Source: Desulfobacterales bacterium (lineage in GTDB: Bacteria; Desulfobacterota; Desulfobacteria; Desulfobacterales; JAFDDL01). Taken from it: 32,000 bases of DNA. Under the pieces are notes generated by a model. That model made no database searches and had not been told where the DNA came from. It worked only from the letters and a program-made list of their open reading frames with translations. Shown here piece after piece: positions 1,014-29,094 of the stretch (within the stretch, counting starts at the first letter, position 1; every line of letters starts with the position of its first letter). A program made the translations under genes and the position numbers. The DNA lies in contig CAXXXZ010000003.1 of assembly GCA_963675725.2 (NCBI GenBank), positions 487,626 to 519,625 of the forward strand, written 5' to 3'.

Positions 1014-1523
1014 TTAAAAATCTGAAATCAGCGCATATCCATTAAGCTGGTACCCGATCGCAGATATCCACCCATTATCCACCTTGTTAATCTCCGGCAG
1101 GATAGAGTCAGGATCAATCCCCATCAACTCCACCGCGGCCACGCAAATCTCAAGTTTGATCCCGTCTTTTGCCATCTTTGAAACTATACCGGCAATGGTA
1201 TCCAAATGGGCTGCTGCCTCTGGCGCCAGGCCTTCCCTGGTTTTCGACACCAATTTAACGGCCGGCCCCATAAAAACAACAATAACCTCTGGTTTCTTTG
1301 AATTGATGTGTAGATTGGGATCTTTGAACGTCTTGTGTATCAAATCCAGATGGACCGCAGCTACCTTTGGATTTCCCACCCTCACATCAAACACTGCCCT
1401 GACCGAATCGAGCCCTTTCAGGGCATTGTACTGACTGGCAAAAGAGCTTACCGGCAATAGCAACCCGATCGCCACTGCAATAATAAGGTATTGTAATCTT
1501 TTGTTGTTATATTTTAAATTCAT
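1014..1523 (-). CDS. DsrE/DsrF-like family protein with an N-terminal Sec signal peptide (periplasmic)
   Basis: 169 aa. The N-terminus has a hydrophobic core and SFA-SQ cleavage-like site (MNLKYNNKRLQYLIIAVAIGLLLPVSSFASQ). The body (VRAVFDVRVGNP...VIVVFMGPAV...LEICVAAVELMGI) resembles COG1416 DsrE-like proteins. Confidence 0.7.
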   Translation of the reverse strand: MNLKYNNKRLQYLIIAVAIGLLLPVSSFASQYNALKGLDSVRAVFDVRVGNPKVAAVHLDLIHKTFKDPNLHINSKKPEVIVVFMGPAVKLVSKTREGLAPEAAAHLDTIAGIVSKMAKDGIKLEICVAAVELMGIDPDSILPEINKVDNGWISAIGYQLNGYALISDF

Positions 1524-8536: not shown

Positions 8537-9946
8537 CTACCAGCCCCAAGTCAAATAATCATGAATGGAATTAGCAGCACTTCGGCCAGCACCCATGGCC
8601 AGAATAACGGTGGCAGCACCGGTTACAATGTCGCCGCCAGCCCATACGCCTCTTTTACTGGTTTTTCCGGTTAGGGGATCAGCTTCAATGTATCCCCATT
8701 TGTTCAACGCCATATCCTCTGTTGAACTGGTCAACAATGGGTTGGCACCCGATCCAACGGCTACAACCACCAGGTCGCAGTCCATCTTGAACTCAGAGCC
8801 TTTCACCGCCACCGGGCGACGCCGACCGGAATCATCCGGTTCACCAAGTTCCATTTTCAGACATTCCATACCGGTGAGCCGACCCTGCTCATTCCCGAGA
8901 TATTTGGTTGGAGTCGTTAACAGAAAAAATTCGATCCCCTCTTCTTCAGCATGATGAATTTCAGCTCCTCTGGCCGGCATCTCATCTCTGGACCGGCGAT
9001 ACACAATACGAACCCGGTCCGCACCCAACCGCATGGCGGTCCGCGCTGAATCCATCGCCACGTTACCCGCACCAAGCACTACCACATCTTTTGCTCTCGG
9101 AATCGGCGTGTCGTATTCCGGGAACCGGTATGCCTTCATCAGATTGGCCCGTGTGAGGTATTCATTGGCAGAAAGAATCCCCACCAGGTTCTCACCAGGG
9201 ATATTCATAAACCGCGGAAGACCGGCCCCGACACCTACATAAATGGCCTCATAGCCTTCCTCGAAAAGCTCATCCAAAGAAACGGTGCTCCCGACAACGG
9301 CATTACACTGAACATCAACGCCGAGCCTCTCGAGGAAATTCACCTCCTGGGCAACGATGTCTTTGGGCAGCCGAAACTCCGGGATGCCGTAGACCAGCAC
9401 ACCACCAGCCTTATGAAAGGCCTCAAAAACGGTCACGGAATGCCCTTTGGCAATCAGGTCACCGGCCACAGTAAGCCCTGAAGGCCCGGACCCCACCACC
9501 GCAACCTTCTTTCCAGTGGGCGCTGCCTTGGGCGGCAGTTCACCGGTTCCGTTGGTCCGCTCCCAATCGGCCGCAAAACGTTCCAGGTTGCCGATCGCCA
9601 CAGGGGCGTCCTTCTTGCCGACAATACACCGTCCCTCGCACTGGCTCTCCTGGGGGCAGACTCGTCCGCATACTGCGGGCAAGCTGTTCTGGGTCCACAA
9701 TTTTCGAATTGCAGCGGTAAAATCACCCTCCGCAATCAATTTAATAAACCCGGGAATATCAATACCAACGGGGCATCCTTCAACGCAGGCCGGTTTTTTA
9801 CACTGTAAACAGCGCGTTGCTTCCAGCTTTGCTTGCTCAGGTGAGTATCCCAGAGGCACTTCCTCGAAATTTCGCCGTCTGACCTCTGCCGGTTGCTCCG
9901 GCATGGCCTGTCGTGATATTTTTTCTTTTTTTGGTTTCTCTGCCAT
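8537..9946 (-). CDS. nfnB: GltD-like NADPH-dependent oxidoreductase, large subunit of an NfnAB/SudAB-type complex
   Basis: 469 aa. N-terminal Cys clusters (CLQCKKPACVEGCP ... CGRVCPQESQCEGRC), then two dinucleotide folds (VAVVGSGPSGL, VVVLGAGNVAMD). This matches homotetrameric glutamate synthase small-chain-like proteins. Confidence 0.85.
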   Translation of the reverse strand: MAEKPKKEKISRQAMPEQPAEVRRRNFEEVPLGYSPEQAKLEATRCLQCKKPACVEGCPVGIDIPGFIKLIAEGDFTAAIRKLWTQNSLPAVCGRVCPQESQCEGRCIVGKKDAPVAIGNLERFAADWERTNGTGELPPKAAPTGKKVAVVGSGPSGLTVAGDLIAKGHSVTVFEAFHKAGGVLVYGIPEFRLPKDIVAQEVNFLERLGVDVQCNAVVGSTVSLDELFEEGYEAIYVGVGAGLPRFMNIPGENLVGILSANEYLTRANLMKAYRFPEYDTPIPRAKDVVVLGAGNVAMDSARTAMRLGADRVRIVYRRSRDEMPARGAEIHHAEEEGIEFFLLTTPTKYLGNEQGRLTGMECLKMELGEPDDSGRRRPVAVKGSEFKMDCDLVVVAVGSGANPLLTSSTEDMALNKWGYIEADPLTGKTSKRGVWAGGDIVTGAATVILAMGAGRSAANSIHDYLTWGW

Positions 9947-10053
9947 ATGAACCCTCCATAGAACAAATCCAATATGTGGTTGGTTTCAGTTCTTCAATAA
10001 TCGTTGTTTAGTAAATCGGTTGCACCGCATCGGGCGTCATTGCCCGATATCGC

Positions 10054-10887
10054 CTACGCCTCTTTTAATCGGCAGTAGTCTTCATGACACTTCTTTTCCT
10101 CTTCACAATAGGCTTGAAGACGAAGCATCAGCTCATCGAAATCAACCGCATGACCGTCAAATTCCGGGCCGTCAACACATGCAAACTTTGTTTCACCGCC
10201 AACCGAAACACGACAGCCACCACACATACCGGTGCCATCCACCATGATCGGGTTCAAACTGACCAGAGTTTTAACGCCGTACTCTTTTGTCATTTTGCAT
10301 ACAAACTTCATCATCGGTACCGGCCCGATCGCCACGACCATCTGCACGTCTTTGGCGTCCAGCTTCTGTTTCAGCACATCGGTCACAAATCCGTGATGGC
10401 CATACGAACCATCATCCGTACAGACATTCAATTCATTGGAAGCGGCTTTCATCTGATCTTCCATGATCAGCAGGCTTTTGGTGCGGGCACCGATAATAGC
10501 CGTTACATCGTTACCAATCTCTTTAAGGCCCCGGGTAATCGGATGCAAAACAGCGATTCCGGTCCCCCCCCCCACGCAAACCACTTTGCCCAATTTTTCC
10601 AAATGGGTAGGCTTTCCAAGGGGGCCAATCACATCCTGATATGCATCTCCCTCTTTCAAATCTCTGAAGACACTGGTCCCCTTACCGACGACTGCATAAA
10701 TAATCGTAACGGTCCCCTTTTCAGGATTTGAATCAGCCATGGTCAGCGGAATTCGCTCACCGGCTTCATTGGCCTTCAAAATGAGAAACTGGCCAGGCTT
10801 GGCTTTTTTCGCAATGAGGGGCGCCTCAATTTCGTTCAGAATGACACCCCCATCGGACATTTCTTCTCGTTTAACAATTTTAAACAT
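10054..10887 (-). CDS. nfnA: Ferredoxin-NADP reductase-like FAD/NAD-binding [2Fe-2S] protein, small subunit of an NfnAB/SudAB-type complex
   Basis: MFKIVKREEM ... RIPLTMADS ... VCVGGGTGIAV ... C-terminal CGGCRV...C cluster. I place the start at the ATG at 10887 because a GGAGG lies 8 nt upstream; the longer ORF start at 10908 contains that SD. Confidence 0.85.
   Translation of the reverse strand: MFKIVKREEMSDGGVILNEIEAPLIAKKAKPGQFLILKANEAGERIPLTMADSNPEKGTVTIIYAVVGKGTSVFRDLKEGDAYQDVIGPLGKPTHLEKLGKVVCVGGGTGIAVLHPITRGLKEIGNDVTAIIGARTKSLLIMEDQMKAASNELNVCTDDGSYGHHGFVTDVLKQKLDAKDVQMVVAIGPVPMMKFVCKMTKEYGVKTLVSLNPIMVDGTGMCGGCRVSVGGETKFACVDGPEFDGHAVDFDELMLRLQAYCEEEKKCHEDYCRLKEA
10564..10573 (-). repeat. 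G10 (C10 on the plus strand) homopolymer inside nfnA, in frame
   Basis: The minus strand reads GTG GGG GGG GGG ACC, encoding V-G-G-G-T of the dinucleotide-binding loop VCVGGGTGIAV. Confidence 0.9.
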
Positions 10888-11051
10888 TATTATACCTCCA
10901 GGCGACAAGCTATTAAAAAAATGGGGTCAAACAATTCTTGATTTCAAAAGTTGAGTTATATACCCTGTTTTTCTGGTGATTTCAATATTAAAATATTACC
11001 CGCTGGCCTGGCGGTGGTCCTCCCGGCCGCGGTCGACTCCGGACATTGGAC

Positions 11052-11837
11052 ATGAAAATAGTTGATAGCCATTGCCACTTGGATGGCAGCGCATTCGCAA
11101 AAGACAGAAGCACCGTTATTGATAGATTTAAGAACGTTGGCGGCCAGGCGATGGTGATCGCCGGAATCGACGAAAAAAGTTCCCGTGCAGCGGTAACACT
11201 GGCGGGAAAAAACGAACGGGTATATGCCTCGGTAGGAATTCATCCCCATGATGCCACCACATGCAATCCCGACGTATTGTCAAAACTCCAACAACTGGCC
11301 CAGCACCAAAAGGTCGTCGCATGGGGGGAAATCGGTCTTGATTTCAACCGCATGTATTCCCCCCGCAATGTCCAGGAGCAGGCGTTTGTGGCGCAACTTG
11401 CCCTGGCCGATTCGCTCGGTTTGCCGATTATCTTTCATGAACGAGAGACGGGCGGCCGGTTTCTGGCCATGCTCAACGCCCATCCAAATCCTGGTAGAAG
11501 CGGGGTGGTTCACTGTTTCAGCGGAAACAGGAACGAACTTGAACACTATCTGGCCCTTGGGTTCTATATCGGCATCACCGGAATTATCACCCTTAAACAG
11601 CGGGGAAAAAATCTTCGGGAGCTGGTGACCGCAATTCCCTCAGACCGTCTGTTGGTGGAAACGGACGCCCCCTATTTGACCCCCGCACCGGAAAAAAACC
11701 GAACCCGCCGGAATGAACCCGCCTTTGTCCGCTCGGTATTGATGAAGGTTGCCGAGGTCCGGCAGGAAGATCCGGAAACATTTTCCGAAATCGTTTGGCA
11801 AAATACATGCCACCTGTTTCAATTACCAGTGTCATAA
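11052..11837 (+). CDS. tatD: TatD family metal-dependent hydrolase
   Basis: MKIVDSHCHLD ... GIHPH ... GEIGLDF ... IFHERE ... VVHCFSG ... ETDAPYL are the classic TatD motifs. The ATG at 11052 is preferred over the TTG at 11046. Confidence 0.85.
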   Translation: MKIVDSHCHLDGSAFAKDRSTVIDRFKNVGGQAMVIAGIDEKSSRAAVTLAGKNERVYASVGIHPHDATTCNPDVLSKLQQLAQHQKVVAWGEIGLDFNRMYSPRNVQEQAFVAQLALADSLGLPIIFHERETGGRFLAMLNAHPNPGRSGVVHCFSGNRNELEHYLALGFYIGITGIITLKQRGKNLRELVTAIPSDRLLVETDAPYLTPAPEKNRTRRNEPAFVRSVLMKVAEVRQEDPETFSEIVWQNTCHLFQLPVS

Positions 11838-12748: not shown

Positions 12749-13771
12749 ATGGAAGCTTATCTTTATGAAACGTTGGACGACCAGAAGGTGCGATGCGCTC
12801 TCTGCCATCATCGTTGCACGATTAAAAATGGCAGTCGAGGTATCTGCCAGGTCAGAGAAAACGTAGATGGCCAGCTTCGCACCTTGGTTTTCGGAAAACT
12901 CATCGCCCGCCATGTGGATCCAATTGAAAAAAAGCCGCTGTTTCATCTCTACCCCGGCAGCCTGTCCTATTCCGTTGCCACGGTGGGATGCAACTTCAAA
13001 TGCCTTTTTTGCCAGAACGCCGATATTGCCCAGATGCCTGAAGATCGCGACGGATTGGTAATGGGGTCAGCTACAACCCCCGAGGCGGTGATCCGAAATG
13101 CCCTCGCCCACGATTGTAAAAGTATCGCCTATACTTACACCGAACCCACTGTATATTTTGAATTTGCCTTTGAAACTGCACGCCTGGCACGGCAACACGG
13201 GCTTTGCAATGTATTGGTCACCAACGGATACATGACCCCGGAAGCGCTTGAAAAAATCGGCCCATACCTGGACGGGGCCAATGTAGATCTAAAGGCTTAT
13301 TCAAATGATTTTTACAAAAAATATTGCGGCGCCAGGTTGGAACCTGTCAAGGAAACGCTCATCGGGATGCGAAAGAAAGGAATTCTCGTCGAAGTCACCA
13401 CATTGCTAATCCCTGACCTTAATACCAGCGAAAACGAACTGACGGCCCTGGCACACTTTCTATTCGAATCGTTGGGGCCGGACACCCCCTGGCACATCAG
13501 CCGTTTCCACCCCACTTACAAACTCACGGACCGCCCCCCCACCCCCGTATCCAGCCTGGTGGCTGCCCGGCAGATCGGACAGGATGCCGGCTTGAAATAT
13601 GTTTATACCGGCAACATCCCCGGCCATCCCGGCGAGCATACCCTATGCCACCAATGTGGCGAAGTATTGATTGACAGATGGGGGTTTACAGTGCAAAAGA
13701 ATCAGATTCAACAGGGCCGCTGCCCCTTTTGCCACACGCCGGTGGCAGGTGTCGGCATGGACGGGGCATAG
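12749..13771 (+). CDS. AmmeMemoRadiSam-system-type radical SAM enzyme (PflA-like activase fold)
   Basis: 340 aa. N-terminal Cys-rich region VRCALCHHRCTIKNGSRGICQVREN, the radical SAM CX3CX2C motif GCNFKCLFCQN, and a C-terminal CHQCG...CPFCH zinc-ribbon-like pair. AAGGAA lies upstream of the ATG. Confidence 0.75.
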   Translation: MEAYLYETLDDQKVRCALCHHRCTIKNGSRGICQVRENVDGQLRTLVFGKLIARHVDPIEKKPLFHLYPGSLSYSVATVGCNFKCLFCQNADIAQMPEDRDGLVMGSATTPEAVIRNALAHDCKSIAYTYTEPTVYFEFAFETARLARQHGLCNVLVTNGYMTPEALEKIGPYLDGANVDLKAYSNDFYKKYCGARLEPVKETLIGMRKKGILVEVTTLLIPDLNTSENELTALAHFLFESLGPDTPWHISRFHPTYKLTDRPPTPVSSLVAARQIGQDAGLKYVYTGNIPGHPGEHTLCHQCGEVLIDRWGFTVQKNQIQQGRCPFCHTPVAGVGMDGA

Positions 13772-13794
13772 GGGCCGGCATATTGAGACAACAT

Positions 13795-14706
13795 ATGAAA
13801 TATCACACTCATATTTTTAGATCCAAACAGGGGGACGGCCCCTGGGGTCGGGTAGCCACCTTTGCCAGAATGATAAAATTCTCACATACGGTGTTTGCCC
13901 TTCCCTTTGCCCTGGCGGCCGTCGTGCTCGCTCAGCGACACACCCCCCTTACCCTGTGGCATTTATGGTGGCTTTTGATGGCGATGGTCGGCGCACGGTC
14001 TGCCGCCATGGGGGTTAACCGAATTGTCGATGCAGAAATTGATAAAAGGAACCCACGCACTGCCCAGCGGGAGATTCCCGCCGGCAAACTGAGTCAAAAC
14101 GCCGCTGTATTATTCGTCTGTCTGTTCTCAGGGCTGTTTATTCTGTCCGCTGCCATGTTTGGCAGGCTATGCCTCTATCTGTCTGTACCGGTCTTGATAC
14201 TGCTGTTTTCATACTCTTACACCAAACGGTTCACCGCGTTCTGTCACATTTACCTGGGGTTTACAATTTCGCTGGCTCCCGTCGGCGCATGGATCGCCAT
14301 TACCGGCGGGCTTGATCCGTCTATTCTACTTCTTTCTGGCGCGTTGATGACCTATATTGCCGGGTTTGATGTTCTTTATGCCTGTCAAGACGAAGCCTTT
14401 GACAAAACGGCGGGACTCTCCTCCATGCCGGTCCGGTTCGGCATCCCGAGGGCACTCAAGGTCGCATCATTTCTTCATCTGCTGTCTCTTTCTTTTTTCA
14501 TCTGTATCCACGTTGCGTTCGATATGGGCCCCATCTATCTCGTGACGGTGGGCATCATTGGCGTATTGATGTTCGTCGAACACTGGCTGGTGAAACCGGA
14601 TGATCTAAGTCGCCTTCATATCGCCTTTTTTCACATGAATACCCTGATCTCCATTTCTCTCTTTCTTGGGGTATTACTGGACGAATTGTTAAGGAACCAA
14701 TTATGA
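13795..14706 (+). CDS. UbiA-family aromatic polyprenyltransferase (SCO4491/MqnP-like)
   Basis: The membrane protein starts MKYHTHIF...[17 protein letters not shown] and carries the Asp-rich motifs [15 protein letters not shown] and YACQDEAFD. The longer ORF from 13678 overlaps the rSAM gene and is rejected. The exact start is uncertain. Confidence 0.8.
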
Positions 14707-15353
14707 CGCCTGATGTGACACCGGGAAACACCTTTTCCCAACGCAACATGGACCTGCCGTTGATCGTTGCGATTACCGGTGCTTCCGGAACTGCCTACGG
14801 CCTTCGGCTCATCAGTGCGGTGCTGTCCCAACCGGTGACAGTGCACCTGATCGTCTCTAAGGCCGGCAACCAAGTTCTCCAGCATGAAAACGGGATTCAC
14901 GGTGAAGACATCCCCCGTTACCTGAAAAAAGAAGGCGTGTTGATCCATCCGGGTGCGGCCCTCAAGGTCTGGTCACCGGAGAATCTGTTTGCACCCCCGG
15001 CCAGTGGCTCATTTCTTCACCAGGGCATGGCCATTGCCCCTTGCTCCATGAAAACACTCGGTGCCATTGCCTCCGGATATGGCGACGATCTTATCCACAG
15101 GGCGGCGGACGTTTGCCTGAAAGAAAAACGGCCACTCGTCCTGCTGGCCCGCGAAATGCCATTGAGTATCATTCAGATTGAAAACATGGCCACCGTCGCG
15201 CGGGCTGGGGCCACCGTCATGCCGGCCTCTCCCGGCTTTTATTTTAAGCCGAAAACGGTTTCCGATCTAGTGGATTCCGTTGTAGCACGCGTGTTAGACC
15301 AATTTCATATGACCCATGCCATGACCAAACGGTGGGGAGAAGACAGTGTTTAA
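14703..15353 (+). CDS. ubiX: Flavin prenyltransferase UbiX family
   Basis: LIVAITGASGTAYGLRLI ... IAPCSMKTLGAIASG ... matches UbiX/Pad1. There is an ATGA overlap with the ubiA-like stop and AAGGAA 7 nt upstream. An alternative start exists at 14748. Confidence 0.85.
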   Translation: MTPDVTPGNTFSQRNMDLPLIVAITGASGTAYGLRLISAVLSQPVTVHLIVSKAGNQVLQHENGIHGEDIPRYLKKEGVLIHPGAALKVWSPENLFAPPASGSFLHQGMAIAPCSMKTLGAIASGYGDDLIHRAADVCLKEKRPLVLLAREMPLSIIQIENMATVARAGATVMPASPGFYFKPKTVSDLVDSVVARVLDQFHMTHAMTKRWGEDSV

Positions 15354-17139
15354 AAATCTAAAGGCATTCCTGGACCAGCTCGACGATGCCGGCGAGCTGT
15401 TACACGTTCATGACGAGGTTTCCACCTATCTGGAAATCAGCAAAATCACCGACAGAGAATCAAAACGCGCGAATGGCGGGAAAGCCCTTTTTTTTGAACG
15501 GGTAAAAAACTCCGCGTTTCCGGTGACCACCAATATTTTTGGCAGTCCGAAGCGAATCTGTATGGCGCTGGGGGTAGACCATCTGGATGAGTTAGGTGAG
15601 CGAATCCGCACCTATCTGGATCTTTCCCCTCCCCAGGGATTCAAGGATGTGCTGGCCATGTTCCCCATGGCCCTGTCGCTCACCCAGTTTTTCCCACGGA
15701 AGTTCAGAGGGAAGATCCCGCCCTGCCAAGAGGTGGTGCATACGGGAAAGGATATTGACCTTGGCAGCATTCCCGTACTGCATTGCTGGCCCCAGGATGC
15801 CGGGCCGTTTGTCACCCTGCCGCTCGTATTCACCCAAAGCCTTGCGACCGGAAAACGGAATGTCGGCATGTACCGGTTGCAGGTGTTTGATAAAAACACC
15901 ACCGGCATGCACTGGCACATTCACAAAGATGGCTCTCATTATTTTAACGAGTACCGCGATGCGGGGAAACGGATGCCGGTATCAGTGGCCATCGGTGCGG
16001 ATCCGGCAACGATTTATGCCGCCACGGCCCCCATGCCACGGGGGGTGGATGAAATGCTCCTGGCGGGATTTATCCGGAAAAAGCCGGTGGTGATGACCGA
16101 GTGCGTCACCAACAACCTGAAAATCCCAGCCGAGGCCGAGTTCATTCTGGAAGGGTATGTGGATCCAGGTGAACTGCGCCGGGAAGGCCCGTTTGGGGAC
16201 CACACCGGCTATTATTCCCTTGCGGATGATTATCCTGTTTTCCACGTCACGGCCATCACCCATCGAAAAAAACCGATCTATAATGCAACCCTGGTTGGCC
16301 GCCCCCCCATGGAAGACTGTTATCTTGCCAAAGCCACGGAAAGACTTTTTCTTCCGATGCTTCAAACCGTAATGCCGGAAATCCGTGACTACTGGTTTCC
16401 CTGGGAAGGCGTATTTCACAACATTGTGGTTGTTTCTCTTGAAAAGGAATTTTCCGGCCACACCCAAAAGCTCATAAGCGGCCTCTGGGGTCAGGGCCAA
16501 ATGAGCTTCTGCAAGGCCATTACCGTGGTTGATAAAGAGATCGCGCCCCATGATGAAAAGGCGCTCGTTGATCTGCTTTGCCACCGGCTCGACATCACCA
16601 CCGACCTGACCATCACCAAGGGTGTTTTGGATGTCCTGGACCACAGTTCTCCCTTTCAAAACTTTGGCACAAAGCTTGGCATAGACCTGACCAGACGCTT
16701 TTCAGGAGAACCCCCACGATCAGCGCCGGAACCACTGCCGCAAGCGCTCCCTGCTGGAGATCTTCTGAAAGAAATTCAGGCCGAACTTCCCTATGTGGCG
16801 ACATGTCGGTACCTTTTTGAAGACCAGGAAAAGAAAGAAAAGGCAAAAAATCGGTTTTTAGCTATTTCCATTGCGAAACCGGAAGCGTTGAGCGGCAAGG
16901 AGATCGGGGATAAGTTGGCGGCCATCCCGGCCCTGGCCCCCTGGAACATCGTCATCGTTTTTGACAAAGAGATTGCACTAACCGATGGGTCCCTCATGCT
17001 CTGGAAGATCTTTAATAATGTGGACCCAGCACGGGACATGGTATTTTACGATCACCGGGCGGTCATCAACGCCTGCAAAAAAGGAGCTGCCGACGGTCAT
17101 GACCGCCCCTGGCCCGATGAGCTGACCTTTAATGAATAA
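15346..17139 (+). CDS. UbiD-family (prFMN-dependent) decarboxylase, long SCO4490/MqnL-like form
   Basis: 597 aa with UbiD family blocks (NIFGS, GMYRLQV, WHIHKDG, GPFGDHTGYY). The GTG start overlaps ubiX by 8 nt and has GGAG upstream. Confidence 0.85.
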   Translation: MFKNLKAFLDQLDDAGELLHVHDEVSTYLEISKITDRESKRANGGKALFFERVKNSAFPVTTNIFGSPKRICMALGVDHLDELGERIRTYLDLSPPQGFKDVLAMFPMALSLTQFFPRKFRGKIPPCQEVVHTGKDIDLGSIPVLHCWPQDAGPFVTLPLVFTQSLATGKRNVGMYRLQVFDKNTTGMHWHIHKDGSHYFNEYRDAGKRMPVSVAIGADPATIYAATAPMPRGVDEMLLAGFIRKKPVVMTECVTNNLKIPAEAEFILEGYVDPGELRREGPFGDHTGYYSLADDYPVFHVTAITHRKKPIYNATLVGRPPMEDCYLAKATERLFLPMLQTVMPEIRDYWFPWEGVFHNIVVVSLEKEFSGHTQKLISGLWGQGQMSFCKAITVVDKEIAPHDEKALVDLLCHRLDITTDLTITKGVLDVLDHSSPFQNFGTKLGIDLTRRFSGEPPRSAPEPLPQALPAGDLLKEIQAELPYVATCRYLFEDQEKKEKAKNRFLAISIAKPEALSGKEIGDKLAAIPALAPWNIVIVFDKEIALTDGSLMLWKIFNNVDPARDMVFYDHRAVINACKKGAADGHDRPWPDELTFNE

Positions 17140-17154
17140 CGTAGACGAATAGGA

Positions 17155-17616
17155 TCAAGATAACGACGCCTTAACCTTCAGTTTCGCCGTGATAAGCTCA
17201 TCGTGGGACAGGCGAAGCAGGTTCTTCAATTTGTTCATCAGGTAATGCTCATGATCGTCCATTTTCCCGTCCACATAGACAATCCGCCACAGGGTCTCGA
17301 CAACGCTGATTTTTTCATCTTTTGAGTAGTTGTTATTAATCAGCTTTGCAAACTGCCAAAGATCCAGGCTATCTTCCAGCTCCTGTTTGGCAGAGAGCAC
17401 CAGTGCATCGGCGTGTTCCCGGGACAGGCCATAGGTCTCTTTCAGCACCGCGATAATTTGCGCCATCTCAGCGTCTGAAAATTCATTATCAATTTGGGCA
17501 ATCTCTACAAACAACGCGCAGGCCGCCATACGAACGTCATGTTCTCCAACCTCGCCCTCACAGACCACGTCTTGATTTGTATGGTTACTAAAAAACCGTT
17601 TCACAATTTCAAGCAT
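17155..17616 (-). CDS. TerB-family (tellurite-resistance-like) protein
   Basis: ACALFVEIAQIDNEFSDAEMAQI ... LWRIVYVDGKMDDHEHYLMNKL are the two TerB-type repeats. I place the start at the second ATG (17616) because of a GGAG about 10 nt upstream; the ORF extends to 17634. Confidence 0.7.
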   Translation of the reverse strand: MLEIVKRFFSNHTNQDVVCEGEVGEHDVRMAACALFVEIAQIDNEFSDAEMAQIIAVLKETYGLSREHADALVLSAKQELEDSLDLWQFAKLINNNYSKDEKISVVETLWRIVYVDGKMDDHEHYLMNKLKNLLRLSHDELITAKLKVKASLS

Positions 17617-17650
17617 TCCTATTTCTCCTATCATGGGATATAGTTACATC

Positions 17651-23251: not shown

Positions 23252-24679
23252 TCACGGATCGATCCCAAGGCCCGATTCCCTGCAGAATGCCAGCCGGGAA
23301 TCAGGCGCCGGAGCATCGATCCGTTTTAAAATTTGCCCAAACGCCGACCGAAGGGCCTCTTCCGGAACCGGGTGGTAAAACGGCATGGACAGGGCCTGAT
23401 CCGCGGTCAGGCCGGCCCCGATAGCCCATGACAGAAGATGGGCCATGTGCTCTCCGGCCGGTGCCATCAGTTCCGCCCCCAAGAGTCTGCCGTCCTTTTT
23501 ATCACCGTAGATCCGTGCAATTCCTGCCGCCTTCCCCAGGATCATCCTGGACCGGCCCAGATTTTCCCATGAAGCCTTTCCCGTCACAAAGGCAATCCCC
23601 CGGTCTGTCAGCTCTTTATGGGAATACCCGGCAATGGCAATATCTGGAGATGAAAAGGTGATGGCCAGCGGTGTTCGCTTTCGAAAGCAGGAAACGGTTT
23701 CAGCCGTGGCATTGTACCCTGCGATGATTCCGTCATCTGCTGCTTCGTGAAGAAGGGGTTTTACGCCGTTTACATCTCCCGCCAGAAATACCGGCAGATC
23801 CTTGATCTGAAGGGTACCGGGATCAAAAGGCGGCATGCCCCTGTCATCCAGTTCAACCCCAAGATTTTCCAGGCAAAGGCCGCTTATCAAGGGACGGCGT
23901 CCTGTCGCAAGCAGTATTCGGTCAACAAGCCATTCTCGGTTTTCGCACCCGACCATCACCCCGTTTTCCGACCGGCCGCGGATGTCGGCCGCGCCCAATT
24001 GGATGTTCATCTCCTTTGCAAAATATTCAAACGCATAATCCTGAAGATCAGGATCGGTCAGGCCGCCGGCAGTTTTACGGCGACTGAACGCAATGATGTC
24101 AACCCCTAAACGATGCAGCGCCTGACCCAGCTCAATGCCGATGGGCCCCAGGCCAAACACGGCCAGTTTCCCGGGAAGTTCATCCAGTTCAAAAAACTGA
24201 TCCGAATCAATAATGAAATCCTTGTAGGGCTGCCATTTTTCGGGGATAACCGGCCTTGAGCCTGTGGCAATGATAATGCTTTTGGCCCGAATTTTTTCGT
24301 CTCCCAGGTCCAGGGTTTGGGGATCGATGAATCTGGCCCGCTTTCGAATCAGTTTGTCCATGAAGGGTGACATTTCCTGGATAACACCATCGGCATACGA
24401 ATCCCTGAGCTTCCGTACCCGGGCCATAATGCGGGAGTAGTCCGGCTGCAGCCCCTCCGCCCCGGAAATACCGTATTCGTCAAAAAAGATGCGTTTGTGA
24501 AAATCATTTGCCACGGCAATCAGGTCCTTGGACGGCATGCATCCCACCCGGGCGCAGGTGGTCCCTAAAGGGCCGTCGTCAATTATCACATAGTTGTCGG
24601 TTTTGTGAACAATCTGTTCCTGGGCGGTTAAACCGGCAGTGCCGGCGCCGATAATGGCCACATCAACTTCTCGGGTCAT
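23252..24679 (-). CDS. Dihydrolipoyl-dehydrogenase-like FAD-dependent pyridine nucleotide-disulfide oxidoreductase
   Basis: VDVAIIGAGTAGLTA (FAD fold), redox-active GTTCARVGCMPSK (CxxxxC), a second Rossmann motif LAVFGLGPIGIELG, and a C-terminal dimerisation-type region with HP. I place the start at the ATG at 24679 (GAGGAG 6 nt upstream) rather than at 24766. Confidence 0.8.
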   Translation of the reverse strand: MTREVDVAIIGAGTAGLTAQEQIVHKTDNYVIIDDGPLGTTCARVGCMPSKDLIAVANDFHKRIFFDEYGISGAEGLQPDYSRIMARVRKLRDSYADGVIQEMSPFMDKLIRKRARFIDPQTLDLGDEKIRAKSIIIATGSRPVIPEKWQPYKDFIIDSDQFFELDELPGKLAVFGLGPIGIELGQALHRLGVDIIAFSRRKTAGGLTDPDLQDYAFEYFAKEMNIQLGAADIRGRSENGVMVGCENREWLVDRILLATGRRPLISGLCLENLGVELDDRGMPPFDPGTLQIKDLPVFLAGDVNGVKPLLHEAADDGIIAGYNATAETVSCFRKRTPLAITFSSPDIAIAGYSHKELTDRGIAFVTGKASWENLGRSRMILGKAAGIARIYGDKKDGRLLGAELMAPAGEHMAHLLSWAIGAGLTADQALSMPFYHPVPEEALRSAFGQILKRIDAPAPDSRLAFCRESGLGIDP

Positions 24680-25103
24680 GGAACTCTCCTCTGCAGGTTT
24701 TTCGATGGCTTCTATATTGAATGGATAAGAAAAAAAATTCAACGGATTGATCCAATTATTTTTCAATAGATATTAGCTATAGAGCTGTTTTGCATAATAG
24801 ATATAAAGTATTAGACATGCCATCAATTATCTGAAATGTATCGCTTTATTAGGCAAATAGCTGTTTTCGAGAATCAATCAAATCATCCAGAGGACATTGT
24901 AATGAGGGAAAAGATCTGTTTCGCAATTTTGATAGCACTATCTGTTTTTGTCGTAATCGGTTGTAGTGATTCCAGTCATTCCGGAACAAGCATGAAAACG
25001 CTGTTGACCTATATTGAAAATGGCGAAACAGCGGAAGTGCGGTGGTCCCCAAAAACTGGACAATGTGTTAAGCTCTGAGTCACTCACTTGAAAGGAGTAG
25101 ACC

Positions 25104-25385
25104 ATGAGCAAGAAACGGAAACAGTACAGCCCGGAATTTAAAGCCAAAGTGGCCCTTGCGGCCATCAAGAACGAGGAGACCACCGCGGAACTTGCGGCCA
25201 GATTTGAAGTTCACCCCACCATGATCAATAACTGGAAAAAGGCGCTTCTCGAAGGCGCTGCCGATTTGTTCGATAAAGGACAAAAAATCAAGAAGAACCA
25301 TGAATCCACTGTCGATGAGCTGTACAAAAAAATCGGACAACTGAAGGTGGAAAACGATTTTTTGTCCAAAGGGCTCGGTCTTTAG
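25104..25385 (+). CDS. IS3-family transposase OrfA (HTH plus leucine-zipper region)
   Basis: [52 protein letters not shown]...[11 protein letters not shown] is the typical IS3 OrfA pattern. GGAG lies upstream. Confidence 0.9.
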
Positions 25386-25405
25386 ATCCGAAACTGCGAA
25401 AAAAG

Positions 25406-26230
25406 ATGATTGATTCCAAGCAGCCAGGACTGAGCCTTAACCGTCAATGCAGCCTTCTGAATGTCAACAGATCATCGGTCTATTACAAGCCGCGGCCGAT
25501 ATCGTCGGACGACCTTGAGTTGATGAAATTGATCGATGACGAATATATGAAACGTCCGACAAGTGGTAGTCGGACTATTCGCGATTTCCTTGAAAGAAAA
25601 GGCCAAAGAGTGAATCGGAAACGGATTCAGCGTCTCATGCGACTGATGGGTCTTGAGGCAATTTATCCGAGACCAAAAACCAGCAGGCCGCATCCGGAAC
25701 ACCGTATTTACCCCTATCTGTTGAGGGGGCTTGATATCAATCGACCGAATATGGTCTGGTGCAGCGATATCACCTTCGTCCCCATGAGACGGGGGTTTAT
25801 GTATCTGGTGGCGGTGATGGATTGGCACAGCAGGAAAGCGCTGTCCTGGCGCCTCTCAAACACACTTGATTCTGATTTCTGCGTTGAAGCCATAGAGGAG
25901 GCGATCGAACGATACGGCCGCCCTGAGATATTCAATACTGATCAGGGCTGCCAGTTCACAAGCAAAGCTTTCACCAATGTATTGAAAACCAACGGCATCA
26001 AAATCAGCATGGATGGCCGGGGACGTTGTCTGGACAACATCTTTATCGAACGTCTCTGGTGGACCGTAAAATATCACTATCTCCACCTGCACTCATTTGA
26101 AAATGGCCTTGAAATGAGAAAAGGCTTGAGAAAGTGGTTCGAGTTTTATAATCGGGAACGCGGGCATCAATCGCTGAACAGACAGACTCCCGATGAATGC
26201 TATTTCAAAGAGCAAAGAATGGCAGCCTGA
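25406..26230 (+). CDS. IS3-family transposase OrfB (DDE integrase core); the -1 frame is open from 25319, and it is expected to be expressed as an OrfAB fusion
   Basis: LSLNRQCSLLNVNRSSVYY, and the DDE triad context WCSDITFV / IFNTDQGCQFTS / NIFIERLWWTVKY. The frame is -1 relative to orfA. Confidence 0.9.
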   Translation: MIDSKQPGLSLNRQCSLLNVNRSSVYYKPRPISSDDLELMKLIDDEYMKRPTSGSRTIRDFLERKGQRVNRKRIQRLMRLMGLEAIYPRPKTSRPHPEHRIYPYLLRGLDINRPNMVWCSDITFVPMRRGFMYLVAVMDWHSRKALSWRLSNTLDSDFCVEAIEEAIERYGRPEIFNTDQGCQFTSKAFTNVLKTNGIKISMDGRGRCLDNIFIERLWWTVKYHYLHLHSFENGLEMRKGLRKWFEFYNRERGHQSLNRQTPDECYFKEQRMAA

Positions 26231-28012
26231 TGGTCAGGCGCCACCCGGGCCAACTCCAGTCGCCCTACGGGCTCCTTCCGTTGTCCCGGGTGAAAAACAT
26301 AACAGCAGTAAAAACACAACCGACTTAGAGCTTAACTACACTGAAAAGTTGTCTGAACCAGGGGGGCCACCGCAAAGGCACTACCAATCGCGTTTTGATA
26401 ATAGATACCCGGGACAGCGCCGAATACATCGAAGGGCACATTATAGATGCCATAAACATTCCTTTTGCGCTCATTGCTGAAAGCGGGGAGCCGTTATACA
26501 CAAATGGATATGATGAGGTCAGTACGACAGCTTCAACCCAGCTCGCCGACAGCTGGTTTGCCCATATATTGATCAATCAATTGACGAACGATTTTACCTC
26601 GACCTACGAAGATTCCAAAATCATTTTTTACGGTGCCAGCGCAAGTGAAGCGAGGAATGTTGCAAAAGAAATTGGCTATTCGGATGTATCCAAATTAAAC
26701 GCTGATTATGACGACTGGAACGCCAATTATTCAAATTTTACTGAAACATGTGCGCCAGGTGTGATAGCAATAGACCAGGAAAGCAATACATTTACGTTTT
26801 CAGCCGTCATCAACGCTGACAATTATGAAAATGTCTCTCAAAAAGGCACCCATCATGCCATCGTTTACAAAGGTGGCGGTTTGGCATTCTATAGTCTATT
26901 ACAGGCAAATATACCGCCTTTCTGTTTTCAGGAGCTTATGACTTATCTGGGTGCTATCCCCGATGGAAACATGGCAGATGGCATCTACTACGGTGATGCT
27001 GATGAATACGGCAGTAAGCACACCGATGGACAACGAATTGATTTTGCCGTCACATGGGAAGGTGCTGGCCGTTATTACAGCATTGAAGATTTGTTTGATG
27101 AAATGCCATCGGCCTATGATTCAGATCCAGAGGCATTTATACCCCTTGGCATGGAGGCGAGAATTGGTGGAACACGGGATTCCAATATGAACTGGAATCC
27201 CGGCTGTATTTTATGTTTATATTCTTGCGTCTGCGGAATAACGAGCAACTCCAAAGCAAATGACGACACTTGGTTTGAAGATGGCGGGATCTATGACCCT
27301 TATGGTCTGCCAGATGACCCGCGGAATTACTATGCCGGGCGCTTTTATCCCAAATCCGGTCTTTTGCCTGGCCCGGGCGAAGAGGTCACTATTAAGGTTA
27401 CAATTGTGGACGATGATGTGGCGGCCACATCAGAAGCAACCCTTCTTACCTACCTCCAAAATGGAGATACTTCGGAAAATTCACAGGATCGTATCTTGGT
27501 TGTGGATACCCGTAGCAGTGAAAAATATATCAAAGGGCATATTAAAGATGCACTGAATGTGCCCTATCATATGGCGCAAAGCGGTGGCCTTCCGCTATAC
27601 ACCAACGGTTGGGATGAAGTCTCCACAACAGCATCCGACCAAATATCCGATTCCTGGCTGGCCCATCTGCTCGTCAACCAACTCGTCAACGATTTTTCAT
27701 CCACTTATCAGGAATCACACATCATATTTTACGGCGATAATAGTTACACGATGGCCAAAGTTGCTGAACAAATAGGCTACACTGATGTTTCTGTCCTCAA
27801 CGATGTATATGAACAATGGGTGACCAGCAATCCAGACGAGATCGAAATGTATGCACCAGGCGTTATTGAAGTAAATGAAACGGAAGGAAGTTTTACATTC
27901 ACGGGTTTCATCAACAGCAGCAATTATGAAAACGTCTCCACCCGACCCACCCACCATGGGATCACGTATAAAGGTGGGGCGCTCAGCTTTTACAGTTATT
28001 TTGTCGCCAACA

Positions 28013-28022
28013 CCCCCCCCCC
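28013..28022 (+). repeat. C10 homopolymer at the frameshift point of the lipoprotein gene
   Basis: GCC AAC A-CCCCCCCCCC-TTTGTTTTC. With 10 C the frame runs into TGA at 28033-28035. With 9 C it reads ANTPPLCFHELLVYLG, colinear with module 1 (ANIPPFCFQELMTYLG). Confidence 0.9.
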
Positions 28023-29094
28023 TTTGTTTTCATGAACTTTTGGTCTACTTAGGTGTTAGCCCGGAAGGAAATATGGCAGATGGTATATATTATTGCACCA
28101 CTGAAGAATATGCCGGCAAGTACCCGAACGGCGCCAGAATCGATTACGCTGTAACCTGGTCGGGTGCGGGCCAGTATTATTCCATAACTGAGCTATTTGA
28201 AGAAAAACCATCGGAGTATCATCCCGCCCCTGATTCTTTTACACTACTTGGTATCGAACCGCGAATGGGCGGGACTCGGGACTCCAACCTGCTATGGAAT
28301 CCGGGATGCATATTCTGCATGTATGCCTGTGTATGTGGAATTTCAAGCAATGCAAAAGCAAATGAAGATACATGGTTTGCCGACAGTGGAATTTACGATA
28401 CCTTCGGCCAGCCGGACAATCCGCGAAACTATTATGCCGGGCGGTATTTTCCAAGATACGACCTGATGCCAGGGCCAGGAGAACCGGTTCAGTTCAAGGT
28501 AACAATTACCGAATAAAACCATATTTGCCCCCAATATTTCCACGCGTTATTTTTTTTGTTGAAATCAGTTTTGATTCTTAGCGTGCTGTTTTTAGGGTCA
28601 AAAACATTCGCCTAAAATGTATTTCGTTGTGTTTCTCGATGTATTAGTCTGTATTTTAAATCACTTATCTTGGCCCGACGGATCAAGTAAATTAATCTAA
28701 TTCCCTGTCGCTCCCCGCATATGAGAAGCGGCTTGGACCCGGTTCGGATTAATACATCCATGCCCCCTAATACCCCATGGAAACTTTTTTTTAAACGCCC
28801 CCTCCACCGGGTAGCAAACATTCTATTTCCCAAATCTGTCCATTTCGGCAATATCATCCAAATCCGTATACTTGACATAATGGCGATTATCAGTCATGAA
28901 AATCCTATGAGATTCACACTGGCAAGATGCACAGCCTTAAATTTGCCTGCTTTTCACGAACGAAAGCAATTTCTTATCCATTATCCATTTGCAACGCGTA
29001 GTGTCGAATGAAGTAGATCAACAGAGTGATGAGGCGGCTGACATGATTAGCGTCAGCAAACATTAATTTGTCATTTTGAAGGAGGATGCAGAGT

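Follow-up and report, generated by a model that had tools for sequence, protein, structure and literature searches.

A probable pseudogene of a tandem rhodanese-like/YdjY lipoprotein in a Desulfobacterales bacterium, and the possible role of its intact relatives

The stretch of DNA analyzed here (the window) comprises 32,000 nucleotides (nt) from a Desulfobacterales bacterium (GenBank assembly GCA_963675725.2, contig CAXXXZ010000003.1, positions 487,626 to 519,625 of the forward strand). Positions 24902-28516 (+) of the window are, with high confidence, a single inactivated gene, the pseudogene of a lipoprotein made up of two tandem modules, each of which pairs a rhodanese-like domain that appears catalytically dead with a YdjY domain. 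The reading frame is broken at two places, by an insertion sequence (IS) of the IS3 family and by a homopolymer frameshift. The intact relatives of this gene may act as periplasmic thiol-based carriers or acceptors that serve a chalcogen or metalloid system involving DedA and rhodanese proteins, a reading to which we assign a probability of roughly 0.4. For the window itself the result is a modest one, a dead copy of a gene from a catalogued family; for the family, it provides testable leads on a long-standing Escherichia coli y-gene and on the enigmatic DedA proteins.

Lesions in the reading frame and the repaired product

The gene, its domains and its two lesions are laid out along the window as follows.

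24902-24964 (+), ATG start and lipoprotein signal peptide, MREKICFAILIALSVFVVIGC, with lipobox VIGC, Cys21 and no twin-arginine motif, read directly from the letters; homologues have equivalent lipoboxes
24965-25037 (+), mature N-terminus and start of rhodanese-like domain 1 up to the point of IS insertion, TLLTYIENGETAE, colinear with the orthologue of locus L008 (see below)
25035-25037, left copy of the target-site duplication, AAG, read from the sequence
25038-26374 (+), IS3-family element of 1337 base pairs (bp), with imperfect terminal inverted repeats TGCGGTGG(T/C)CCCC...; its ends read TGCGGTGG...CCACCGCA
25104-25385 (+), orfA of the IS, Pfam HTH_Tnp_1
25406-26230 (+), orfB of the IS, Pfam rve, rve_3 and HTH_21
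26375-26377, right copy of the target-site duplication, AAG, read from the sequence
26378-26739 (+), remainder of rhodanese-like domain 1 (PF00581), with IIDTRDSAEYIEGHIIDAINIPF at 26398-26466 and the Cys-less loop IIFYGASASEAR at 26620-26655
26740-27417 (+), YdjY domain 1, with THH at 26848, PPFCFQEL at 26914, GNMADG at 26965, GGTRDSN at 27166, CILCLYSCVC at 27205-27234 and NYYAGRFYP at 27325
27418-27840 (+), linker and rhodanese-like domain 2 (PF00581), with TLLTYLQNG at 27439, VVDTRSSEKYIKGHIKDALNVPY at 27499-27567 and the Cys-less loop IIFYGDNSYTMA at 27721-27756
27841-28516 (+), YdjY domain 2 and stop codon, split by the frameshift, with the Cys cluster CIFCMYACVC at 28307-28336
28013-28022 (+), homopolymer of ten C (C10) causing a +1 frameshift; C9 would give ANTPPLCFHEL

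The inserted element has the organization of the IS3 family, with orfA and orfB in successive frames, TG...CA inverted repeats (imperfect and with an indel) and a 3-bp target duplication. It is present as a single copy in the window and cuts the frame at codon 46, after ...ENGETAE. Excision of 25038-26377, that is, of the element and one copy of the duplication, yields ...ENGETAEGTTNRVLIID / ...ENGETAEGTTNRVLIIDTRD, without gaps against the orthologue. An alternative pair of junctions (25043-26370) gave a product of 761 amino acids (aa) with a 4-residue insertion relative to the orthologue, and was dropped in favor of 25038-26374. At the second lesion, removal of one C from the tract at 28013-28022 joins an open reading frame (ORF) of 546 aa (26395-28035) to another of 213 aa (27875-28516).

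With both repairs made, the product is exactly 757 aa long, where an earlier reading of this DNA from its letters alone (the original prediction) had put it at about that length, and it is colinear with an intact two-module orthologue of 760 aa, encoded at 9482-11764 of locus L008 in a Desulfosalsimonadaceae metagenome-assembled genome (MAG), to which it is 68% identical over the full length. The lipobox and the lack of a twin-arginine motif, both part of that earlier reading, can be read from the sequence (VFVVIGC with Cys21, against the pattern [LVI][ASTVI][GAS]C), and the two colinear modules and all the motifs then quoted lie where they had been placed. The intact form is predicted to be a lipoprotein of 757 aa that leaves the cytoplasm through the Sec pathway and is cleaved by signal peptidase II. 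Its two modules are 58% identical to each other; across the two proteins, orthologous modules are 67-71% identical and paralogous ones 58-60%, and hence the tandem duplication is older than the divergence of the two lineages. If the IS and the slip in the C tract are set aside, the frame stays open throughout and can be aligned with the intact orthologue from one end to the other; the inactivation of the window copy is therefore recent.

The contrary view, that the gene is functional, would explain the C10 tract by faulty sequencing or by phase variation, and the IS by misassembly or by precise excision. Long-read assemblies often get homopolymer lengths wrong, the remainder of both modules is stop-free and well conserved, and split genes of the YdjY-fused family recur in MAGs (L002, L012, L020); we nonetheless consider this view extremely improbable. 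The element has its two inverted repeats, an intact orfA and an intact orfB, and it is flanked by a clean 3-bp duplication in codon 46, which together are the signature of real transposition; the portion of the gene downstream of it lacks a signal peptide. In place of the C tract the L008 orthologue has ATCCCGCCCTTC, and the tract is therefore not read as a conserved switch. Another 10-base G/C run (10564-10573) sits inside an apparently intact ORF of the window (10054-10908, minus strand; NAD_binding_1, DHODB_Fe-S_bind), which indicates that 10-mers are not always miscalled in this assembly. A scan of the window for promoters and terminators returned nothing over shuffled expectation.

Rhodanese-like and YdjY domains

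The first domain of each module is recognized by Pfam PF00581 (75.7 bits against a cutoff of 22.2) in two stretches, one in each module. The AlphaFold2 model of a module has a predicted local distance difference test score (pLDDT) of 83 and a predicted template-modelling score (pTM) of 0.86, and in Foldseek searches the N-terminal half of this predicted structure matches the single-domain rhodaneses 3ilm, 3nhv, 3d1p and 1gmx (probability 1.0, target template-modelling (TM) scores 0.6-0.7), the matches of the model also including 1rhd, 3ipo (YnjE) and 3tg3 (MKP7). The Gly of IIFYGAS aligns on the active-site Cys of IFYCASGKRG in yeast RDL1/YOR285W (3d1p), in a loop three residues shorter, and the FYG motif is invariant in 24 homologues. 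The replacement affects both modules (IIFYGASASEAR and IIFYGDNSYTMA), which are accordingly without the defining feature of an active sulfurtransferase. The absence of the catalytic Cys from both domains, already claimed in the original prediction, is thus borne out, and the two domains belong by sequence to the rhodanese homology superfamily, as predicted catalytically dead members.

The second domain had been taken to represent an unrecognized family, and this claim has to be given up. NCBIfam NF040466 ('YdjY domain') matches the repaired protein in two stretches with 63.0 bits, over a cutoff of 50, and the window ORF products P0001 and P0028, the latter comprising the C-terminal 147 aa, carry precomputed hits to PF27149, whose Pfam name is 'YdjY'. 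In agreement with these matches, hhalign aligns a profile of five domains with E. coli YdjY at 98.5% probability (E-value 3.8e-15, 143 aligned columns, 30% identity). On this evidence the domain is a YdjY domain, already catalogued by both NCBIfam and Pfam, with function unassigned; the outcome that the original prediction had named as its refutation, a hit to a well-characterized family with known function, has therefore not arisen. E. coli YdjY (b1751) is itself a lipoprotein (LAVAGLSGC) and contains GCLVCLDSCPVG.

Conservation was assessed in a family alignment (A4) of 30 diverse YdjY sequences at about 25-30% identity, E. coli YdjY included. In YdjY-domain numbering, H39, C156, C159 and C163 are invariant in the 30 sequences and present in both window modules; the second His of THH, GCxxCxxxC, G-I/V-x-S-N and a few glycines are kept across the alignment. 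A fourth Cys (CVCG) occurs only in the rhodanese-fused subfamily, other members having CPxG. Strict conservation of four Cys, as originally proposed, therefore holds in part: within the fused subfamily two of them are invariant and the other two are conserved at 90% or more, whereas only the first three are invariant family-wide. The location of the clusters stands, at 27205-27234 and, within the interval 28298-28351 first given, at 28307-28336. Lipoboxes and signal peptides occur throughout the YdjY family, with no obvious twin-arginine motifs.

The domain-only YdjY model has a pLDDT of 79 and a pTM of 0.82, and a Foldseek search with this predicted structure gave no match in the PDB (best E-value 0.63, TM score at most 0.27). 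We know of no solved structure for the family. Literature searches on YdjY, ydjX/ynjE, DUF3641/TIGR04167 and ArsS retrieved no functional study of YdjY, ydjY being mentioned in expression tables and, in passing, once as an oxidative-stress response gene.

Two further architectures were observed in the family. Proteins of 463 aa that combine DedA/VTT (PF09335) with YdjY (P0180, P0186, P0187, P0189, P0193, P0198 and P0201), at least one of them from E. coli and named 'TVP38/TMEM64 family protein', resemble read-through fusions of ydjX and ydjY, genes that lie 4 nt apart in K-12. A 388-aa architecture has two YdjY hits flanking a faint Fer4_21 hit (P0168-P0170 and P0075; positions 6001-7167 of L026); in L026 this gene adjoins those of an ArsR-type HTH_5 regulator and of a C_GCAxxG_C_C protein, the latter also found beside YdjY in L024 and L025.

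Relatives, their gene neighbourhoods and possible function

Besides the intact orthologue, about 35 clusters (at 90% identity) of close homologues and fragments were found in public data, mostly single-module proteins of about 390 aa, and the gene is thus a real and conserved one. They originate in metagenomes and MAGs of Desulfobacterales, other Thermodesulfobacteriota, Thermodesulfovibrionales and Geobacter. Clustering at 50% identity (a library of 1.84 billion representatives) reduces the fused subfamily to about one full-length representative (P0040), and about 120 further clusters are stand-alone YdjY proteins of 200-260 aa. One homologue (P0017) is filed in UniRef under the diatom Amphora coffeiformis, probably through bacterial contamination of a eukaryotic transcriptome. 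Homologues split into two ORFs, at differing positions, were seen in three other MAGs (L002 7273-8444, L012 9860-10660 and L020 2942-4135); in L002 the frame shift falls just upstream of RPTHH, and the split homologues could reflect recurrent decay or assembly errors. UGA-encoded selenocysteine at the Cys of PPFCF, suspected since many homologue fragments start at the M of GNMADG, was rejected: the fragment ends vary, and the position itself is variable among homologues (PFPF, PFLF, PFGF).

To characterize the neighbourhoods of the fused subfamily, the ORFs of 16 non-redundant loci were clustered. Multi-domain rhodaneses are encoded at 10 of the 16 loci, a GT21/cellulose-synthase-like glycosyltransferase (GT) at 8, a small GT2 enzyme resembling polyprenyl-phosphate-hexose synthases at 7, an MptA/B-like GT-C also at 7, and a 288-aa putative outer-membrane protein at 6; fusions of Fer4, CCG and VTT (DedA), DUF2064/TIGR04282 proteins and NapH-like ferredoxins are found at 4 loci each, and ArsS and a B12-radical S-adenosylmethionine (SAM) protein at 3 each. 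The neighbouring multi-domain rhodaneses have signal peptides or lipoboxes together with intact YCxxGxRS loops, and up to seven such genes are clustered. One metagenomic lipoprotein (P0003) is a natural fusion in which rhodanese domains with intact catalytic loops are joined to a dead rhodanese domain and YdjY. ArsS (TIGR04167), the AhpD-like TIGR04169 and TIGR04282 score over their curated cutoffs in L002, L005, L009, L013, L024, L025 and L095, with an ArsS-type cluster near the gene in L002, L005, L009, L024, L025 and L095.

For stand-alone YdjY, a profile scan of metagenomes with alignment A5 returned mostly E. coli, leaving only about 15 diverse loci usable. At 15 of 17 diverse loci with stand-alone YdjY, a gene immediately next to it encodes a DedA/VTT protein, and Campylobacter (L024), Pelotomaculum (L025) and L095 also have ArsS, AhpD-like, DUF2064 and GT2 genes. 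An unannotated protein of about 120-130 aa is encoded directly after stand-alone YdjY in three unrelated loci (L024 6636-7001, L025 6751-7137 and L023 6597-7133); the L023 protein matches its L025 counterpart with an E-value of 8e-33, and it may be a further conserved partner of YdjY. The order in E. coli is ydjX(DedA)-ydjY-ydjZ(DedA)-ynjA(AhpD-like)-ynjBCD, followed by ynjE (rhodanese), and what the original prediction had offered tentatively, a YdjY-like lipoprotein near a rhodanese gene of E. coli, proved accurate, ydjY lying six genes upstream of ynjE. Both the ydjY operon and ynjE are FNR-activated (PMC3688515). In several phyla YdjY is encoded in the company of ArsS, AhpD-like and rhodanese genes.

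The carrier reading introduced above would bring these associations together as follows. The intact lipoprotein would be tethered at the periplasmic face of the membrane, where the YdjY domain would offer a putative site made up of the invariant His and the CxxCxxxC cysteines, plus the extra Cys in the fused subfamily. This site may bind a thiophilic species, the candidates being sulfane sulfur, selenium or an As(III)-type metalloid. By analogy with the inactive N-domain of tandem rhodaneses, the Cys-less rhodanese might be a docking adaptor for the exported, active multi-domain rhodaneses encoded nearby, which would load or unload YdjY. The bound species, or a lipid-linked form of it, could then be handed to or from a DedA/VTT membrane protein that would move the cargo across the membrane, and in many genomes the relay might feed or drain a pathway composed of an ArsS-type radical SAM enzyme, an AhpD-like protein and glycosyltransferases. 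The dead-rhodanese fusions, along with the one active-rhodanese fusion, suggest that sulfur, selenium or a metalloid is relayed at the membrane surface. In its most specific form, YdjY would be a new fold whose extracytoplasmic His-Cys3 thiolate site catches soft chalcogens or metalloids, and it would make up the periplasmic part of a bipartite system completed by DedA/VTT; in the fused forms, active exported rhodaneses would dock on the dead domain to load the cargo. We regard this version as doubtful. If true, it would be the first functional assignment for E. coli ydjXYZ and for the COG0398 branch of DedA, and it would supply an uptake or export arm for the ArsS-type organo-metalloid pathways of anaerobes.

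Several observations weigh against the carrier reading. Everything in it beyond domain identity draws on gene neighbourhood and conserved residues, and the pLDDT around the Cys cluster of the module model is only 51-77. Truly redox-active or metal-binding families in these organisms often include selenocysteine variants, and no TGA was found at any cluster Cys among the 108 motif instances scanned. ArsS occurs at as few as 3 of the 16 fused-subfamily loci. Within the window, the partner genes of the relatives (rhodanese, DedA, ArsS, AhpD-like and GT) are not present, so that the pathway link has no local support: no DedA/VTT gene was found among the window ORFs scanned, the sole radical SAM gene is of the AmmeMemoRadiSam type rather than part of an ArsS-type cluster, and no neighbouring gene is common to the window and any related locus. 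Finally, the glycosyltransferase, GT-C and polyprenyl-phosphate-type neighbours fit a role in envelope glycolipids equally well.

This last point leads to the main rival explanation, according to which the Cys/His site is purely structural (zinc or disulfides) and the protein is an accessory of an envelope pathway for glycoconjugates or lipids, a periplasmic partner of a DedA flippase for lipids or polyprenyl phosphate and of GT-C and GT2 enzymes, with no carriage of S, Se or As. It accommodates readily the commonest non-rhodanese neighbours (GT21-like GT at 8 loci, GT2 at 7, GT-C at 7 and the outer-membrane-like 288-aa protein at 6), and DedA, whose adjacency is the strongest association of the YdjY family, has been described as a group of lipid or undecaprenyl phosphate flippases and scramblases (PMC10127716). 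On the other hand, it leaves unexplained the fusion to rhodanese, the clusters with up to seven exported active rhodanese genes, the P0003 fusion and the AhpD-like and ArsS partners, and a structural disulfide would not usually require that a His and three Cys stay invariant at about 25% identity. We consider this rival unlikely. The RefSeq product name, '4Fe-4S ferredoxin-type', suggests instead a lipoprotein that shuttles periplasmic electrons to rhodaneses or to NapH-like or CCG partners, and there are several indications in its favor: GCxxCxxxCPxG resembles the tail of CxxCxxCxxxCP, the profile weakly matches the ArrB ferredoxin (E-value 0.0095), sub-threshold Fer4 hits occur in 7 of 30 YdjY members, the invariant His could serve as fourth ligand, and NapH-like ferredoxins and Fer4+CCG-DedA proteins are among the neighbours. 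Yet the full CxxCxxCxxxCP is lacking (CxxCxxxCxC here, CxxCxxxCP elsewhere), no Fer4 Pfam model scores over threshold (E-value 0.046 or worse in other members, and none on the window domain), and the twin-arginine translocation system is the route by which periplasmic Fe-S proteins, already folded, are exported. Given only three Cys conserved family-wide, no Fer4 match over threshold, a predicted fold that matches no ferredoxin in the PDB, and Sec/lipoprotein signals with no obvious twin-arginine motif, the RefSeq label is unconvincing and the ferredoxin explanation quite improbable.

Around the pseudogene, the window has a divergent neighbour at 23252-24766, an ordinary dihydrolipoyl-dehydrogenase-type flavoprotein. 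Enzymes of this class are frequent fusion partners of COG0398-type DedA proteins (PMC10127716); the neighbour was nevertheless not counted as evidence. Other genes encode a hotdog thioesterase, CheX, PilZ proteins and members of the SDR and GNAT families, among others. At 12749-17139 an AmmeMemoRadiSam-system radical SAM gene (TIGR04337, 357 bits) is followed by genes for a UbiA prenyltransferase, a UbiX-like flavoprotein and a UbiD-like decarboxylase. A TerB (tellurite-resistance) protein at 17155-17634 (-) and a DsrE-like protein at 1014-1523 (-) bear chalcogen-related names, neither of them being adjacent to the pseudogene. The ORF at 10054-10908 that holds the second G/C run adjoins a GltD-like gene (8537-9946) with Fer4_20 and Pyr_redox_2 domains.

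Comparison with known systems

Rhodanese folds without a catalytic Cys are known from the N-terminal domains of bovine rhodanese and YnjE and from the non-catalytic domain of MAP-kinase phosphatases, and inactive rhodanese-homology domains of this kind have structural or docking roles. Unlike in tandem rhodaneses, the dead domain of the window protein shares its chain with YdjY rather than with an active rhodanese, P0003 being the exception among its relatives. A second point of reference is the ArsS-type 'arsenosugar biosynthesis' neighbourhood (TIGR04167, the peroxidase-like TIGR04169 and the transferases TIGR04282/TIGR04283), which houses both fused relatives and the stand-alone YdjY of Campylobacter and Pelotomaculum; YdjY is not among its name-giving families, and the window is without the whole cluster. 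The names of ArsS clusters in anaerobes were given by analogy with cyanobacterial ArsS, and arsenic as their substrate there is not established.

Closer to the window gene are the single-module rhodanese-YdjY lipoproteins of Desulfobacterota and Nitrospirota MAGs (e.g. P0005-P0025; P0040), none of which appears to be described in the literature searched. They share the same module at 50-66% identity, with FYG, the four Cys and a lipobox, and differ in having one module of about 390 aa and in residing usually in gene clusters with rhodanese, DedA-CCG, GT and ArsS genes. With E. coli YdjY, the window protein shares the homologous domain, an N-terminal lipobox, the invariant His and GCxxCxxxC...SN, and the genomic settings of E. 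coli YdjY and of the relatives of the window gene both combine DedA, an AhpD-like protein and a rhodanese. The differences are nonetheless considerable. E. coli YdjY stands alone, with about 225 aa and three Cys (CxxCxxxCP), whereas in the window protein the domain is fused to a dead rhodanese, the whole module is duplicated, the cluster has a fourth Cys (CxxCxxxCxC), and about 45 aa are added at the C-terminus (DTWF...NYYAGR); its gene, unlike ydjY, is broken and has no partner genes nearby. The leads drawn from the family can be tested in E. coli itself (ydjXYZ-ynjABCD and ynjE), without recourse to the uncultured source organisms. The YdjY family as such was already known; what is new is that the domain is fused to a dead rhodanese, that the fused module occurs in tandem, and that it has an extra Cys and a C-terminal extension.

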